64,000 bases of DNA from an uncultured Candidatus Saccharibacteria bacterium (GCA_964531475.1 CAZHCS010000001.1:14712-78711); one strand, 5' to 3'. Positions 8,259-62,888 are shown, numbered from the stretch's first letter. Translations and numbers: made by a program. The notes: generated from the sequence alone by a model not told the origin.

Positions 8259-8330
8259 GCCCCCATAGTTCAATGGATAGAACAGTTCCGTCCTAAGGAG
8301 TAGATGTACGTTCGATTCGTACTGGGGGCA
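8259..8330 (+). tRNA. tRNA-Arg(CCT)
   Basis: GCCCCCA/TGGGGGC acceptor, D-arm GTTCAATGGATAGAAC, anticodon loop GTCCTAA (anticodon CCT), T-arm GTACGTTCGATTCGTAC. No CCA encoded. Confidence 0.8.
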
Positions 8331-8375
8331 CACAAGCACAAAATTCCGCGTAAGCGGAATTTTGTGCTTGTGTGC
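8328..8375 (+). other. perfect 22-bp stem hairpin (GTAA loop) overlapping the last 3 nt of tRNA-Arg
   Basis: GCACACAAGCACAAAATTCCGC-GTAA-GCGGAATTTTGTGCTTGTGTGC. No U-tract follows. Confidence 0.7.
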
Positions 8376-8405
8376 CGGCCGCATAAATATGCTAAAATAT
8401 TACCC

Positions 8406-12515: not shown

Positions 12516-12551
12516 TTCGAAATTCTAACACAGGTCAGCGCGGTGCATCAT

Positions 12552-13622: not shown

Positions 13623-14801
13623 TTACAAACTCCAATTTGGATCTGCGACGATAGTTGCAAGTTCGGGAAATGCTTTGCCACTTCGTATCAAAAAAAATCC
13701 GGCTATCGCTATCATGAGAGAATTGTCAGTCGATAGATCGTGGTCGGGGAAAACGACTTGGGTTCCAGGGAATTCCGCCCCGGCCATTTCCGTTAGGCGC
13801 TCTTTGATATATGTGTTCGCCGACACGCCGCCACCGACTATTAGAGTTGTTGCGCCGAATTCGGCTACCGCATCGCGTGTTTTTTTCACCAAAACATCGG
13901 TTACGGCCGTTTCGAATTCGCGCGCGACATCGCATTTTGTTTGTTCGTCCATTTCGCCGAGTTTTTTTACGAGATACAGAACCGAGGTTTTGATTCCGGA
14001 AAATGAAAAACTATAATCCCCCGAATTGATCATTGGCCTTGGCAAACTAATATCCGCGCGCGTGACGCCGCGTTTTGCAAGTTCAGAAACTTTTGGTCCG
14101 CCAGGGTAGGGTAACCCCAGAAGTCGCGCGACTTTGTCGAACGCCTCACCGACAGCGTCGTCTTTGGTCGCACCGATTTTTGTACATGCAAGGAAGTCGT
14201 TCATGACGACGAGCTCGGTATGGCCGCCAGAAATGAGAAGCGATATCGCAGGGAAGCGGAGGTTTGATATGTCTAGGGTTTGCGGCGTGTTTGGTGTCGC
14301 GGTGATGAGTGTCGAAAGCGCGTGCCCGTGCATATGGTTTGCCGGCATGACGGGTATGTCCCAGATTAGCGAGAGAGCTTTTGCGAAGTTGATACCGACC
14401 CACAATGCTGGTGCGAGTCCAGGACCAGCAGTGACGACGATAGCGTCAAGCGCTGGGCGTTCGATTGTGTTCGCGATTTCGAGCACCACGTCAGCCATTT
14501 TGCCTTCGCGCTCAAGGAGCCTTCTGATCTCATCCGGCCCAGTATTCAAGGTCGAACCTTGAATACTTGGATGATACATATCGGCCTGCTTCAAGCATTC
14601 GACGAAAATCGGCGGCAAGTTTTTAGCGTGTTCTCGCTTGGCCAAGTTAGGATAGACGCCGCCGAATTCGCGATGTATGTCGATCTGCGAGCGGACTACG
14701 TTCGCGAGTACGGTAAAAGTCGCCGTATTGTCCGTTTCGACGACGTCGAGGATAGAAATCGCGGTTTCGTCGCAGGATGTTTCGATAGAGAGAAGCTTCA
14801 T
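13623..14801 (-). CDS. tsaD: tRNA N6-adenosine threonylcarbamoyltransferase TsaD
   Basis: LSIETSCDETAIS, GGVSAN, LGLPYPGGP. It contains an in-frame P2 insert (PSIQGSTLNT). Confidence 0.9.
   Translation of the reverse strand: MKLLSIETSCDETAISILDVVETDNTATFTVLANVVRSQIDIHREFGGVYPNLAKREHAKNLPPIFVECLKQADMYHPSIQGSTLNTGPDEIRRLLEREGKMADVVLEIANTIERPALDAIVVTAGPGLAPALWVGINFAKALSLIWDIPVMPANHMHGHALSTLITATPNTPQTLDISNLRFPAISLLISGGHTELVVMNDFLACTKIGATKDDAVGEAFDKVARLLGLPYPGGPKVSELAKRGVTRADISLPRPMINSGDYSFSFSGIKTSVLYLVKKLGEMDEQTKCDVAREFETAVTDVLVKKTRDAVAEFGATTLIVGGGVSANTYIKERLTEMAGAEFPGTQVVFPDHDLSTDNSLMIAIAGFFLIRSGKAFPELATIVADPNWSL
14541..14571 (-). repeat. P2 palindromic insert AGTATTCAAGGTCGAACCTTGAATACTTGGA (copy 1), in-frame in tsaD
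   Basis: 31 nt identical to 25745-25775. The 11-bp stem AGTATTCAAGG/CCTTGAATACT with TCGAA loop is a perfect hairpin. It encodes PSIQGSTLNT. Confidence 0.85.
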
Positions 14802-14915
14802 CTCGTTAGAAACAGGTCGCGGTCTTTGCGCTACCTATTTTGTTAATTCTAAAAATTTTCATGTAGATTATTGTGATCCGAATTTACTCAGCAAGTGACC
14901 GTGGTTTCTAACGGG
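14802..14915 (-). repeat. leader element bounded by inverted repeats (U element, copy 1), abutting the tsaD start codon
   Basis: Arms CTCGTTAGAAACAGGTCGCGGTC and GACCGTGGTTTCTAACGGG flank about 72 nt of AT-rich DNA. It is homologous to 26525-26639. Confidence 0.75.
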
Positions 14916-14983
14916 ACTCATGGACGACACTTTACATTTCTTTTCGCTTCCTGTAAAGTCTTGGCAAACAAAACGTACTTCAC

Positions 14984-24699: not shown

Positions 24700-24762
24700 G
24701 TATTGTAAAGTTTTGGTTCGGCTGTACGATACGTGAACCCTTTGTGATTGTCAAACGTTAAG

Positions 24763-24783
24763 ACTAGAGGTCCGACCTCTAGT
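24763..24783. repeat. P3 palindrome ACTAGAGGTCCGACCTCTAGT (21 nt, odd-centred perfect), 2 nt downstream of the priA-like stop codon
   Basis: Shares the 13-nt core GAGGTCCGACCTC with the in-frame palindrome in mnmA (36192-36216). Confidence 0.75.
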
Positions 24784-24784
24784 C

Positions 24785-26524
24785 CTAGAGCATCTCCGGG
24801 TTGATCCGGATCTGCCAATCGGGGCCGAGAGAGGCGAGGATGCTCGAGAGATGCGGGTTTTGGAATAATTCGTTCCATTCATTCTTTGCGAGCTTCATGA
24901 CGATGACGGTTTCAAATGCCTTGCCGCGTTTGATTCGGCGTGGGAGCGGGGACCAGTCGGCGAGCATGGTGAGGAGTGGTGCAGCGACGCTTTCGAAATC
25001 GTCTTTTGGAGGGATACGCGACAAGCGGACGATCGTGCCAAATGGCGGATAGCTAAACTTTTCTCGCATGAGTTTTTCTGATTCGTAAAATTTTGCGAGG
25101 TCACCACTTGTCGCGGCAATGATGGCTGGCGTGCTTGGTTCGCGGGTTTGGAGAAATACATTATCGGATAGTTTTCCGATGGCCAGCGCGAGACGGAGCA
25201 TCTTTTCATACACACGAAATGACGGAAGCGAGAGAAGTGCGTCCATGGAAATGACGGCAGCGACATCGAGGCGTTTCTCGAGGTACGGCAACGCGAGTTC
25301 CGTACCGACGAGAATCGCATTATTCGACGCGTAAAACTTTTCGATGACCTCGCGGACTTTTTTGTCAGTTTTGACTGTGTCGCCGTCGATTTGAAAAATT
25401 TCTTTTTTCGGAAATAGTTTTTCTGCTTCTTGTGCCACTGTGTCCGTGCCGATACCGAGCGAATCGAAATTCCAACTGTCGCATATAGGGCAGCGTGTGC
25501 GAGTGTCTAGTACAGTGTTAGTGAGTGGGTTGATTAGTATACGCTGGCCGCCACGTTCACGAAGTGCGAGCGGTGTATCGCCGTCTTTTAATATGTGTCC
25601 GCAATCGTGACAGACGACAGAGCTCGCCAAGCCTTTTTTGAGCGAAAAGAGAAATGCGTGCTTTGATTCGCGAACAGCTTCGAACACTGCGCTTGAAAAG
25701 ATAAAACTTTTCTTATATCGCGCTTCCTTATCACTCATGTCGCAAGTATTCAAGGTCGAACCTTGAATACTTGGAATCGGGAGATATTGTTCGACGATCG
25801 TTTCGAGTGTCGTTGGATTTTCAAATATAAGTTTTGTGTTTAGGGATTTTGCAAGTAGTCGAGCAAAGACGCGCAGGTCGAAATAGGGACGCTTGATTGT
25901 GCGGTAGGCGGCGTTGCCTTCGTCGTGAATGATGATGGTGCCAAGATCGTGTCGTGGTGTGAAAAGAAAAGTTGGCGTCATAACGACGGTAATAGGATTT
26001 GTGCACTCTAATATTTCCTTGTAACGGGCGAAAAGAGTTTTCTTGCGCAAGCTTCCATGAATAATGAATGTTCTATCGAGGTCGAACTTCGATAGATTTT
26101 CATAAAGTTTTTCGGCGGCGCGGACGGTCGGCGCGATATGAAAGATAGTTGTGCCGACCGTCCGCGCCGCCGGTTTCGGCAACTCTTGGTGCTTGGTCAA
26201 GAACTCCGACGGAATAAAATAATTGATGATCTGGCCCAAGTTTCCAGCCGAAAAATCACGCGCGGCGCGGCACCCTTCGAAAAATTCTCTATAGAAGGGT
26301 GCCGCGCCGCGCTTCTCGCGCACTTTCCGTAATGCAAAATCAGAACCTTTGACATCTATCTTTCTTTTCGCCAAGTCGTCAACCGCGACTACTAGTGCAT
26401 CATAGGTTTTTTTTCGTATGTCTATAGACACGATATCGCCGACACTAATATCTTTGGACGAAAAATAGGTGAGCGAGTCTTTCGCGACTTTGTCGGTGAT
26501 TGGTGAGACTTCGATAAGCTTCAT
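24785..26524 (-). CDS. primosomal protein N' (PriA)-like, with degenerate helicase motifs
   Basis: The N-terminal 3'-DNA-binding-like region and the Cys-rich zinc-binding region (CHDCGH...CPICDSW) align to PriA. HIAPTVRAA stands where Walker A GxGKT should be, and IIIHDEG replaces DEEH. It carries an in-frame P2 insert. Confidence 0.55.
   Translation of the reverse strand: MKLIEVSPITDKVAKDSLTYFSSKDISVGDIVSIDIRKKTYDALVVAVDDLAKRKIDVKGSDFALRKVREKRGAAPFYREFFEGCRAARDFSAGNLGQIINYFIPSEFLTKHQELPKPAARTVGTTIFHIAPTVRAAEKLYENLSKFDLDRTFIIHGSLRKKTLFARYKEILECTNPITVVMTPTFLFTPRHDLGTIIIHDEGNAAYRTIKRPYFDLRVFARLLAKSLNTKLIFENPTTLETIVEQYLPIPSIQGSTLNTCDMSDKEARYKKSFIFSSAVFEAVRESKHAFLFSLKKGLASSVVCHDCGHILKDGDTPLALRERGGQRILINPLTNTVLDTRTRCPICDSWNFDSLGIGTDTVAQEAEKLFPKKEIFQIDGDTVKTDKKVREVIEKFYASNNAILVGTELALPYLEKRLDVAAVISMDALLSLPSFRVYEKMLRLALAIGKLSDNVFLQTREPSTPAIIAATSGDLAKFYESEKLMREKFSYPPFGTIVRLSRIPPKDDFESVAAPLLTMLADWSPLPRRIKRGKAFETVIVMKLAKNEWNELFQNPHLSSILASLGPDWQIRINPEML
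25745..25775 (-). repeat. P2 palindromic insert (copy 2), in-frame in the priA-like gene
   Basis: Identical 31 nt to 14541-14571. Encodes PSIQGSTLNT within ...EQYLPIPSIQGSTLNTCDMS... Confidence 0.85.
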
Positions 26525-26639
26525 CCCGTTAGAAGCAGGTCGCGGTCATTCCGCAAACTGCTTTGGTTAGAATTGTAATTTTTACTTGTTTTGCAATCAT
26601 AGATTTTATCGATATCCCGTGACCGCGGCTTCTAACGGG
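26525..26639 (-). repeat. leader element bounded by inverted repeats (U element, copy 2), abutting the priA-like start codon
   Basis: Arms CCCGTTAGAAGCAGGTCGCGGTCA and TGACCGCGGCTTCTAACGGG. The internal AT-rich part is about 60% similar to copy 1. Confidence 0.75.
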
Positions 26640-26676
26640 ATTCATAATGCCATTCTACCATTTCCAGCAAACAAAA

Positions 26677-35377: not shown

Positions 35378-36448
35378 ATGGGTGAAGTGCGCAAGAAAAA
35401 GGTATTCGTCGGCGTTTCGGGCGGAGTGGATAGCTCTGTGTCTTTGGCGCTCCTGCGAGACCAAGGCTATGACGTTGTTGGTTGCTTCATAAAGACCTGG
35501 CAGCCGGATTTTGTCACTTGCACATGGAAAGAAGAGCGCCGAGATGCTATGCGCGTATGCGCCAAACTAGGTGTCCCGTTTGTCATGATTGATGCAGAAG
35601 CCGCTTATCGTGACCACGTCGGTAAATATTTCATCGACGAATACAAGGCTGGCCGGACACCTAATCCCGACGTAATGTGCAATCGCGAAATAAAGTTCGG
35701 TATTTTTTTGGATTACGCGCTCGCGCACGGAGCCGACTACGTAGCCACGGGTCACTATGCGCAAACGGAAGCAGTAAACAACAAGCATTACTTACTAAGG
35801 GCGGGGAAAGACGAGGCAAAGGACCAGAGTTATTTTTTGTGGACGCTCACACAAGAACAACTATCAAAAATAATATTTCCCATTGGACATCTGCAAAAAT
35901 CAGAAGTCCGTAAGATTGCTGCAAAATATGATTTATTGACGGCAACTAAAAAAGATTCACAAGGCGTTTGTTTTTTAGGACCAATCGATATGAAAGAATT
36001 TCTCGCACACTATATCGACAAAAAACGCGGAGACGTTCTCGATGTAGATGGAAATGTCATTGGTTATCATGACGGCGCGCTATTTTTCACGCTCGGTGAA
36101 CGCCACGGTTTTATTATTACAAAAAAAGGTAGCGACGATACTCGGCTATACGTCGTTGACCGCAATCTTGCTGACAATACTATTACGGTCGCTGGTCGAG
36201 GTCCGACCTCGACCAGAGGCTTGCGGACCGAGATACGGATTGAAAATTGGAATTGGATCCAAAAACCAGAAAATGGCAAGATTTATGGGGCCCGTATTCG
36301 CTACCAACAACCCCTTCAGGCGTGCCGTGTAGAGGGCGAGATGGTCATATTTGATCAACCGCAGGAAGCCGCGGCGCCTGGGCAGTCGTGTGTCGTTTAT
36401 GATGCAGGAGTTTTGATAGGGGGAGGTATTGTAGGCCGTAGCTCTTGA
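35378..36448 (+). CDS. mnmA: tRNA-specific 2-thiouridylase MnmA
   Basis: PP-loop VFVGVSGGVDSSV, catalytic-Cys region, C-terminal barrel. Contains the in-frame P3 palindrome insert (AGRGPTSTRG). Confidence 0.9.
   Translation: MGEVRKKKVFVGVSGGVDSSVSLALLRDQGYDVVGCFIKTWQPDFVTCTWKEERRDAMRVCAKLGVPFVMIDAEAAYRDHVGKYFIDEYKAGRTPNPDVMCNREIKFGIFLDYALAHGADYVATGHYAQTEAVNNKHYLLRAGKDEAKDQSYFLWTLTQEQLSKIIFPIGHLQKSEVRKIAAKYDLLTATKKDSQGVCFLGPIDMKEFLAHYIDKKRGDVLDVDGNVIGYHDGALFFTLGERHGFIITKKGSDDTRLYVVDRNLADNTITVAGRGPTSTRGLRTEIRIENWNWIQKPENGKIYGARIRYQQPLQACRVEGEMVIFDQPQEAAAPGQSCVVYDAGVLIGGGIVGRSS
36192..36216 (+). repeat. P3 palindrome CTGGTCGAGGTCCGACCTCGACCAG (25 nt, perfect), in-frame in mnmA
   Basis: Shares the core GAGGTCCGACCTC with 24763-24783. 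Confidence 0.8.
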
Positions 36449-62843: not shown

Positions 62844-62888
62844 GAAGCCGGGCTGGGGTGATGCAAAGCATCACCCCAGCCCGGCTTC
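62844..62888 (+). terminator. long perfect hairpin terminator (21-bp stem, AAA loop)
   Basis: GAAGCCGGGCTGGGGTGATGC-aaa-GCATCACCCCAGCCCGGCTTC followed by TTGCTTTTCC. Confidence 0.7.

Follow-up and report, generated by a model that had tools for sequence, protein, structure and literature searches.

Why do two unrelated genes, tsaD and a priA-like gene, begin directly behind what appears to be the same short leader? The question is raised by the window (the whole stretch of DNA analysed here, 64,000 nucleotides long), in which a sequence-only reading had described two such elements and had left two interpretations side by side: a MITE-like mobile promoter and leader cassette, or a translational-control structure shared by the two genes. 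The answer that we consider probable is that both are copies of a start-codon MITE, a non-autonomous element found across the Paceibacteria/Parcubacteria (CPR) that rebuilds the start codon it enters and leaves the host promoter or SD upstream; the expression steps that go with it are ones that we infer.

Two repeat-bounded elements in the window

Inspection of the sequence confirmed both elements where they had been placed, each ending at its minus-strand gene (tsaD, 13623-14801; priA-like gene, 24785-26524). The inverted repeats are present, with arms CTCGTTAGAAACAGGTCGCGGTC / GACCGTGGTTTCTAACGGG and CCCGTTAGAAGCAGGTCGCGGTC / GACCGCGGCTTCTAACGGG (20 nt on the left, 24 nt on the right), as are the described core of about 72 nt (72 and 73 nt), the extra AGGT (ACCT on the sense strand) in the gene-proximal arm of both copies and the identical gene beginning, ATGAAGCT, directly after both elements. 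The two had also been called near-identical, which holds for the arms but not for the cores, where the likeness is weak. The 21-mer of the proximal arm occurs 2 times against 0 expected, and one A-T to G-C difference between the window copies is compensated in both arms. On the minus strand the common layout begins ATGA[G/A]T - CCCGTTAGAA[A/G]C - C[A/G]CGGTC, continues through the core of 72/73 nt and ends GACCGCG - ACCT - G[T/C]TTCTAACG[A/G]G - ATGAAGCTT, in elements of 116-117 bp whose internal ORFs are only 18-37 codons long.

A scan of the window with nhmmer and a covariance model (E<=10) returned only these two copies. The covariance model places copy 1 at 14796-14921 (E=3e-21) and copy 2 at 26519-26645 (E=1e-26), E-values that are not independent as both copies are in its seed; a copy outside the seed (L127) scores E=6e-14. 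A degenerate third copy had been suspected upstream of valS (12516-12545), where neither nhmmer nor the covariance model found anything (E<=10); the segment is a native leaderless promoter, with an extended -10 (TGTTAGAAT) followed by 6 nt and ATG, and the valS orthologue in L119 (3180-3200) has TGCTAAAAT, 6 nt and ATG in the matching place. The features of the two copies are collected in Table 1.

Table 1. Features of the two elements and of a second hairpin repeat; positions are those of the window unless a locus is named.
Feature	Position	Strand	Sequence and remarks
Element copy 1, whole	14801..14916	(-)	Terminal T = 14916; terminal A = 14801, also A of tsaD ATG
Copy 1, left (gene-distal) terminal inverted repeat	14897..14916	(-)	T-CCCGTTAGAAAC-CACGGTC; from sequence, family alignment and pair counts
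Copy 1, right (gene-proximal) terminal inverted repeat	14801..14824	(-)	GACCGCG-ACCT-GTTTCTAACGAG-A; 4-nt ACCT bulge
Relic of original tsaD start, ATGAG	14917..14921	(-)	Upstream target-site duplication copy TGAG = 14917-14920; empty site in L119 = ATGAGGCTTCTC
tsaD downstream duplication copy, TGAA	14797..14800	(-)	With terminal A 14801 gives working tsaD start codon, 14799-14801
sORF in copy 1	14806..14862	(-)	MKIFRINKIGSAKTATCF-TAA; stop 4 nt upstream of tsaD ATG
Native tsaD promoter, outside element	14929..14957	(-)	TTTACA-17-TAAAGT, then 7 nt to relic ATG; kept in empty-site L119
Element copy 2, whole	26524..26640	(-)	T = 26640; A = 26524, also A of priA ATG; empty-site orthologues L123, L124
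Copy 2, left terminal inverted repeat	26621..26640	(-)	T-CCCGTTAGAAGC-CGCGGTC
Copy 2, right terminal inverted repeat	26524..26547	(-)	GACCGCG-ACCT-GCTTCTAACGGG-A
Relic of original priA start, ATGAA	26641..26645	(-)	Upstream duplication copy TGAA, 26641-26644; element-free L124 = TGGTAGAATcagcttATGAAACTC, L123 = TGATAGAATaggcccATGAGACTG
priA downstream duplication copy, TGAA	26520..26523	(-)	With A 26524 gives working priA start codon
sORF in copy 2	26529..26600	(-)	MIAKQVKITILTKAVCGMTATCF-TAA; stop 4 nt upstream of priA ATG
Local hairpin P2, copy 2	26533..26563	(-)	Core AAGCAGUUUGCGG pairs with right-arm CCGCGACCUGCUU; MFE structure and family test
Native priA extended -10, outside element	26652..26660	(-)	TGGTAGAAT, then 6 nt to relic ATG; also in empty-site L124 and L123
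AGGT-NNN-ACCT hairpins	14541-14567, 25743-25773, 24762-24784, 36192-36216; L119:1107-1133; L124:2254-2276		Second repeat

The window also carries a second lineage-specific repeat, consisting of perfect hairpins of 10-14 bp with the apex AGGT-NNN-ACCT. The tsaD and priA coding regions share an identical 31-nt stretch containing it, in both followed by PSIQGSTLNT; further copies are found immediately 3' of the priA stop and inside the CDS at 35378-36448. The three coding-region copies are in frame as GGT-NCG-ACC (G-x-T), and relatives have hairpins with different stems at homologous codons, while none was found in 866 kb of other Paceibacteria loci. This family looks RPE-like, and CGACCT is common to its hairpins and to the right arm of the element. 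Two unusually long perfect hairpins, with stems of 23 bp and 21 bp, lie at 8327-8376 and 62844-62888, the former beginning within the 3' end of a tRNA-Arg.

A dispersed family at start codons

A genome-wide search for the arm pair had been proposed by the sequence-only reading, which had also named two copies born of a local duplication as the finding that would tell against mobility. Scanning one genome per species with a pattern demanding both arms gave at least 117 loci, several genomes having 2-5 loci each; the pattern demanded intact arms, so that the apparent conservation of the arms is inflated. Chance similarity, or a segmental duplication limited to this genome, is clearly contradicted by these at least 117 loci in other genomes, by the 0 expected matches and by flanking genes that are unrelated, and can be dismissed. 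More diverged copies were detected by nhmmer inside the same 8-kb loci. The family can be written as T/C-CCCGTTAGAAGC-CGCGGTC ... AT-rich core ... GACCGCG-ACCT-GCTTCTAACGGG-A/G, with a length of ~115-125 bp. Among the matches listed, taxon-bearing record titles are nearly all Paceibacteria/Parcubacteria (Nomura-, Zambryski-, Taylor-, Campbell-, Jorgensen-, Giovannoni-, Sungii- and Tagabacteria), some MAGs with the element are labelled Saccharibacteria, and other taxa appear in 2 of 117 titles (L019, a Gammaproteobacteria MAG, and L093, a Klebsiella MAG). The viral contigs searched contained 0 copies.

The host genes, named by reading their N-terminal sequences, are diverse and unrelated housekeeping genes among the matches listed: they include replication and repair genes (dnaA, dnaE, ligA, ssb, recO, recR, holB), ribosomal proteins, secA, secY, yidC, lepA, mreB, ftsW, murG and pilB, as well as aminoacyl-tRNA synthetases, pgk, gap and tig. 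A shared translational-control structure in the sense of a regulon is thus unsupported, as the ~100 host genes among the matches listed are functionally unrelated; the structure of the element may nevertheless affect the translation of whatever host gene received the insertion.

When the copies are aligned with the arm lacking the 4-nt insertion in front, the element runs straight into a start codon in 98 of 103 oriented copies among the matches listed (94 ATG, 4 GTG), and these codons open real ORFs. The gene side is always the arm with the ACCT bulge, and AGGT/ACCT is present in 88 of 91 proximal arms, again among the matches listed. The insertion point falls 3-5 nt past the A of the gene's start codon, and the sense strand reads native promoter or SD, relic ATG-NN, left arm, core, right arm-A, TG-NN of the gene. 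In 75 of 98 copies among the matches listed, an upstream ATG or GTG lies 4-8 nt (mode 6) from the left arm. This relic ATG and the gene's ATG are followed by the same base in 74 of 75 pairs (shuffled pairs averaging 30.8 and never exceeding 42), and the second base agrees in 60 of 73 (shuffled mean 44.1), both among the matches listed; agreement at the third, which is the element's own T, is not significant. The matching bases imply that the gene's first 4-5 nt form a direct repeat flanking the element, the TGNN duplication being 4 bp long in 55 copies, 3 bp in 11 and 5 bp in 7 among the matches listed. The upstream ATG has been lost in 23 copies (23%) among the matches listed, and several of the ATG-less relics inspected are one base off ATGNNT (ATAAAT, ACGGAT, TTGAAT).

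The element boundaries are best placed at T/C-CCCG...CGGG-A/G. So delimited, the element's first base pairs with the first base of the rebuilt start codon, and a compensating 5' C is found in 2 of 4 GTG-start copies among the matches listed, as well as in one ATG-start copy (L112). It is simplest to suppose that the element itself supplies the first base of the start codon: the duplicated TG following its last base (A, or G in the first-base-C variants) rebuilds ATG or GTG and leaves the ORF unchanged, and the original ATG is the relic. A duplication length that varies between 3, 4 and 5 bp is unusual for one transposase. The relic also accounts for the uORF M-[S/N]-P-V-R that had been reported ahead of both elements. 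An upstream ATG does open M-S/N-P-V-R in both, but the peptide is not conserved as such, because the 'uORF' is the original ATG plus 1-2 nt (the upstream duplication copy) read into the left terminal repeat, and its frame varies with the length of the duplication.

Comparison with orthologous upstream regions, another check that had been suggested, revealed empty sites for both window genes. In L119/L120 the TsaD protein is 68% identical and the divergent ADK-like neighbour is the same, there is no element, and the site reads ...TTTACAGGAAGCGGAAATGAATGTAAAGTGTCGCTC-ATGAGGCTTCTCTCTATTGAAAC; the window has the same promoter, then ATGAG, the element and ATGAAGCTTCTCTCTATCGAAAC. Similarly, the priA start is element-free in L124 (65%; TGGTAGAATcagcttATGAAACTCGTCGAAGTC) and L123 (70%; TGATAGAATaggcccATGAGACTG), and filled in the window (TGGTAGAATggcattATGAA-T...A-TGAAGCTTATCGAAGTC). 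The same gene start is filled in L127 and L125, which are longer by 121 nt (element plus TGAA), and empty in L126, the flanks matching over 75 nt before the spacer and ~60 nt after the ATG and differing in that spacer, the 6 nt from the -10 box to the ATG. The element of L127/L125 belongs to another subfamily than the window's (arms CCCGTTAGAGATA / TATCTCTAACGGG), and two subfamilies at priA in different lineages point to independent insertions at this start.

The MITE-like half of the original proposal is therefore well founded, resting on inverted repeats, target duplications, numerous copies spread over many genomes, and orthologous sites that are filled in one lineage and empty in another. 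The tested marks of a MITE are all present (short length without a transposase gene, inverted repeats, duplication, dispersed copies, empty and filled sites), and the only structural one not seen is a parent IS: a search for an autonomous partner, with the same repeats around a transposase gene, yielded no arm pairs at IS-like distance in ~0.93 Mb of loci.

The 'mobile promoter' half is not supported. Promoter-like hexamers had been noted in the core, whereas a consensus scan finds no sense-strand promoter in either window core; the promoters lie outside the element and are present in the empty-site orthologues, which keep TTTACA-17-TAAAGT plus 7 nt and ATG at tsaD, and TGGTAGAAT plus 6 nt and ATG at priA. 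Many other hosts have a -10 box 6-8 nt upstream of the relic ATG, which is a leaderless layout, and others have an SD instead, so that the apparent target is the start codon and not the transcription start.

Several loci show further arrangements. In L039 (1203-1517) two copies lie back to back on opposite strands within ~315 nt, and L018 (859-1013) contains a nested copy. The left arms in L004 (1265-1413) and L026 (6998-7150) carry an extra hairpin plus CAGG opposite the bulge, and in L071 (6867-7080) a self-contained CCCGTTAGAAG...GTTCTAACGGG hairpin stands in place of the right arm. Rare copies are found away from a start codon (L031:346-478, L001:2100-2226, L042:3009-3127); that in L031 is flanked by ACAGA / ACAGA, indicating that TG is not strictly needed for the duplication. 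The divergent tsaD and ADK-like promoters of the window overlap as a palindrome at 14929-14959, with TTTACA-17-TAAAGT on both strands; in L118 (775-852) and L121 (2345-2422) a tRNA-Val gene has its 3' end flush against the tsaD ATG (..TCGCCCACAC-ATG), which suggests leaderless mRNAs made through tRNA processing. L121 (2420-2502) also has a 33-nt duplicate of the tsaD 5' end and a 49-nt insert with a GC-rich hairpin upstream of the real ATG, an insertion of another type at this gene start.

Paired arms, local hairpins and small ORFs

The sequence-only reading had pointed to pairing of the two arms in the mRNA and had suggested a covariation analysis of this long stem. Across 112 copies among the matches listed, 98% of cells in the stem are paired, and two-sided changes occur in 13 of 21 pairs (47 cells), a level reached by 0 of 500 shuffles; in diverged copies the whole inner box is exchanged for other complementary sequence. 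Two-sided changes are thus abundant, but the single-base arm mismatches among the matches listed comprise 20 of G:T type and 20 of A:C type, which gives no sign of a wobble preference on the sense strand, nor of per-site upkeep of the stem as RNA. The arm changes track subfamilies, and selection at the level of DNA or of propagation explains the two-sided changes equally well. In our view the concerted changes record the history of subfamilies or a requirement for propagation, and do not prove RNA structure in each copy; they suggest that pairing of the arms matters for propagation.

The long stem competes with local structure. The bulge ACCU and its neighbours are complementary to a core segment (AAGCAGG..), forming a hairpin, P2, that excludes the long stem. 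Among the matches listed, the bulge is paired in the local fold of 78 of 97 copies, with a median z of -3.1 versus shuffled cores, and in the examples inspected the inner helix of P2 differs in sequence between copies while its complementarity is kept. A further local hairpin, P0, engages the left arm and is significant in ~35% of copies among the matches listed. In the window, copy 2 folds at -42.5 kcal/mol (z=-4.9), its 'bulge' being paired in P2 and P2 and the long stem mutually exclusive in the MFE structure; for copy 1 the fold, at -25.5 kcal/mol (z=-1.0), falls short of significance.

An sORF of 18-26 codons that opens with ATG is present in ~58 of 112 copies among the matches listed, both window copies included; its end, ..(L)TATCF-TAA, falls within the right arm, 4-5 nt upstream of the rebuilt ATG. 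Comparable ORFs in other frames are found in 3-8 copies versus the ~58 in the TATCF frame, and an SD precedes 7 of 55 sORFs, all among the matches listed. Copies without the sORF tend to carry P0. In copy 2 the relic ATG at 26645 shares the frame of the sORF, which makes a 37-codon uORF.

Could such anatomy belong to something other than a mobile element? A cis-regulatory leader RNA passed on by vertical descent, acting like a riboswitch or by binding a protein and controlling translation through exclusive folds (long stem against local hairpins), would have its orientation fixed relative to the gene, as here, and would explain the two-sided stem changes, a P2 inner helix that varies yet stays complementary (in the examples inspected) beside P0, and the L004 and L026 variants with an extra hairpin opposite the bulge. 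It sits poorly with host genes that share no function, with close orthologues that lack the element exactly at the duplication boundaries and with a flanking direct repeat that has no role in an RNA switch; nor is there an excess of wobble over A:C mismatches or any Rfam family match, as searches at gathering thresholds over the whole window, and permissively on copy 2, returned only tRNAs and noise. We consider such an origin improbable, though the element may have been co-opted as a leader after insertion and this alternative is thus not fully exclusive of a MITE. A metabolite riboswitch was rejected on the diversity of the host genes. The 9-mer AGCCGCGGT that the left arm shares with the 530 loop of 16S rRNA was considered as mimicry and taken to be a coincidence, diverged copies swapping this box freely with complementarity kept, and the resemblance of the right arm to a tRNA (CTTCTAA as anticodon loop) brought no tRNA call. 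Translational bypass, with initiation at the relic ATG, take-off after codon 2 and landing on the matching codon past the element, would make use of the first two bases of codon 2 that match across the element and of a stable stem that brings both sites together. The gap, however, is ~120 nt, only two codons would be translated, leaving no helping nascent peptide, and the relic ATG is lost in 23% of copies among the matches listed; the match is more simply a target duplication, as the empty sites indicate. Precedents for bypass are T4 gene 60 and the mitochondrial byp elements, and the gene 60 gap is under half of ~120 nt. We regard bypass here as exceedingly unlikely.

Two further alternatives take the arms as recombination sites. 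The likeness to integron attC sites, folded single-strand recombination sites moved by a tyrosine recombinase, is considerable: two paired boxes (12 + 7 bp), one-sided extrahelical bases (the 4-nt bulge), a variable centre, and an inner box in which structure is kept over sequence (CGCTTCGC/GCGAAGCG in L038, GGAGAT/ATCTCC in L040), with GTTAGAA / TTCTAAC resembling GTTRRRY / RYYYAAC. An attC site is 5'-RYYYAAC...GTTRRRY-3' on both strands, recombines at G|TT and closes off promoterless cassettes, which lie beside an intI gene. The boxes of the element are reversed (5'-GTTAGAA...TTCTAAC-3' on both strands), it sits at the 5' ends of core genes (tsaD, priA, ssb, dnaA, r-protein genes) rather than the 3' ends of cassettes, and it has target duplications, of which attC recombination makes none, so that an attC-type site is very unlikely, if slightly less so than bypass. 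An invertible promoter segment of the phase-variation kind would likewise place an AT-rich stretch flanked by inverted repeats immediately before a gene. Yet the core has one orientation in all copies among the matches listed, sense scores being far above antisense, and P2 always adjoins the proximal arm in these matches; the window cores have no sense-strand promoter, the native ones being outside the element, the hosts are essential housekeeping genes, and flanking duplications with empty sites do not fit. Of the alternatives with anything in their favour, this inverton is the one we find hardest to credit.

Proposed host-gene expression, possible homing and known systems

If the start-codon MITE is the right reading, transcription would begin at the native host site, often right at the relic ATG (leaderless), and read through the element. 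Ribosomes initiating on the relic ATG would open the left arm, so that the long stem, which as RNA would otherwise bury the start, could not hide the rebuilt ATG. The right arm would be held in P2 and the left arm, in about half of the copies, in P0; in the other half the sORF would end ..TATCF-UAA 4-5 nt upstream of the rebuilt AUG, where terminating ribosomes could re-initiate. Movement would depend on a transposase supplied in trans. This model of host-gene expression is drawn from the anatomy of the copies.

It is possible, and we advance it tentatively, that the element actively homes to translation starts, as a self-contained portable translational leader, and does not just survive there. 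Its last base would then rebuild the start codon, the sORF stop 4-5 nt upstream would hand ribosomes over, and the local hairpins would stop the terminal repeats from closing over the start. Movement may go via a folded single-strand intermediate (DNA or RNA), which would explain the concerted change of both arms. Selection acting on existing insertions could account for the strict position and orientation in place of targeting. By rough estimate, a preference for ATGNN plus selection alone would leave about half of the copies at non-start intergenic sites in either orientation; that ~95% are at starts in one orientation argues for more than this, on an expectation that is a rough estimate and not a computed figure.

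Were active homing true, the 5' ends of hundreds of essential genes would have been colonised throughout an entire class of CPR bacteria. Transposable elements are expected to avoid or to destroy essential genes, and here core genes of replication, the ribosome, secretion and the cell wall are unbroken despite insertion into the first two codons, in streamlined CPR genomes with almost no spare DNA. This would be a natural case of an insertion that repairs its own damage, and it would probe translation initiation in the Paceibacteria, where the loci suggest re-initiation as well as starts that are leaderless or abut a tRNA. For annotation the element is a hazard, since gene callers and searches for RNA motifs can be led astray by the relic ATG, the sORFs and the long stem. 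The conserved arms offer a simple marker for strain-level variation in Paceibacteria populations.

The element is known from no description found in the literature searched and is a member of no family with which we compared it: the search turned up no paper with the arm sequences, nor any on MITEs in Patescibacteria or at start codons, and a search on leaderless genes in CPR gave nothing relevant to the element. Local hairpins exist near both ends, but an IS200/IS605-derived PATE was rejected, as PATEs have subterminal hairpins and a fixed one-sided target of 4-5 nt and lack terminal inverted repeats and a target duplication, whereas true terminal repeats and variable duplications are present here. 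Rickettsia palindromic elements (RPE) are mobile palindromes tolerated in coding genes with the frame kept usable; they are translated within the host protein, while this MITE is placed outside it. MIRUs are short intergenic repeats, oriented with the operon, whose small ORFs abut or overlap the stops and starts of their neighbours and have been proposed to couple translation. The sORFs described here similarly abut the adjacent gene, but MIRUs are tandem direct repeats without terminal inverted repeats, and lie between operon genes and not in first codons.

The Correia element is the textbook MITE of bacteria; its consensus has a 26-bp repeat and a TA duplication, and its long stem is cleaved by RNase III. 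Correia elements (CREE/NEMIS) of Neisseria are ~100-155 bp long, with terminal inverted repeats of ~20-26 bp, a target duplication and no transposase; they are present in many copies, often 5' of genes, and are co-transcribed and fold into a long stem (PMC3184786). Both are thus short, stem-forming repeats with inverted repeats and a duplication, co-transcribed in Correia and, as we infer, here. Membership in Correia/CREE proper can be rejected, given arms CCCGTTAGAAGC.. and a TGNN duplication in place of the 26-bp repeat and TA. Correia elements, with an unrelated repeat sequence, also have their own promoters and an IHF site and no tie to start codons, whereas this MITE is found in a single orientation within a gene's first two codons and contributes the base with which the start codon begins. 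In its tie to start codons it is like Neisseria REP2 and Borrelia IR-A, repeats fused to the translational starts of many unrelated genes and ending with the ATG (PMC3184786). Fusion to start codons is common to all three; REP2, however, brings promoter, RBS and ATG and lacks both terminal inverted repeats and a target duplication, while the MITE described here relies on the host's own promoter or SD and contributes only one base of the ATG.
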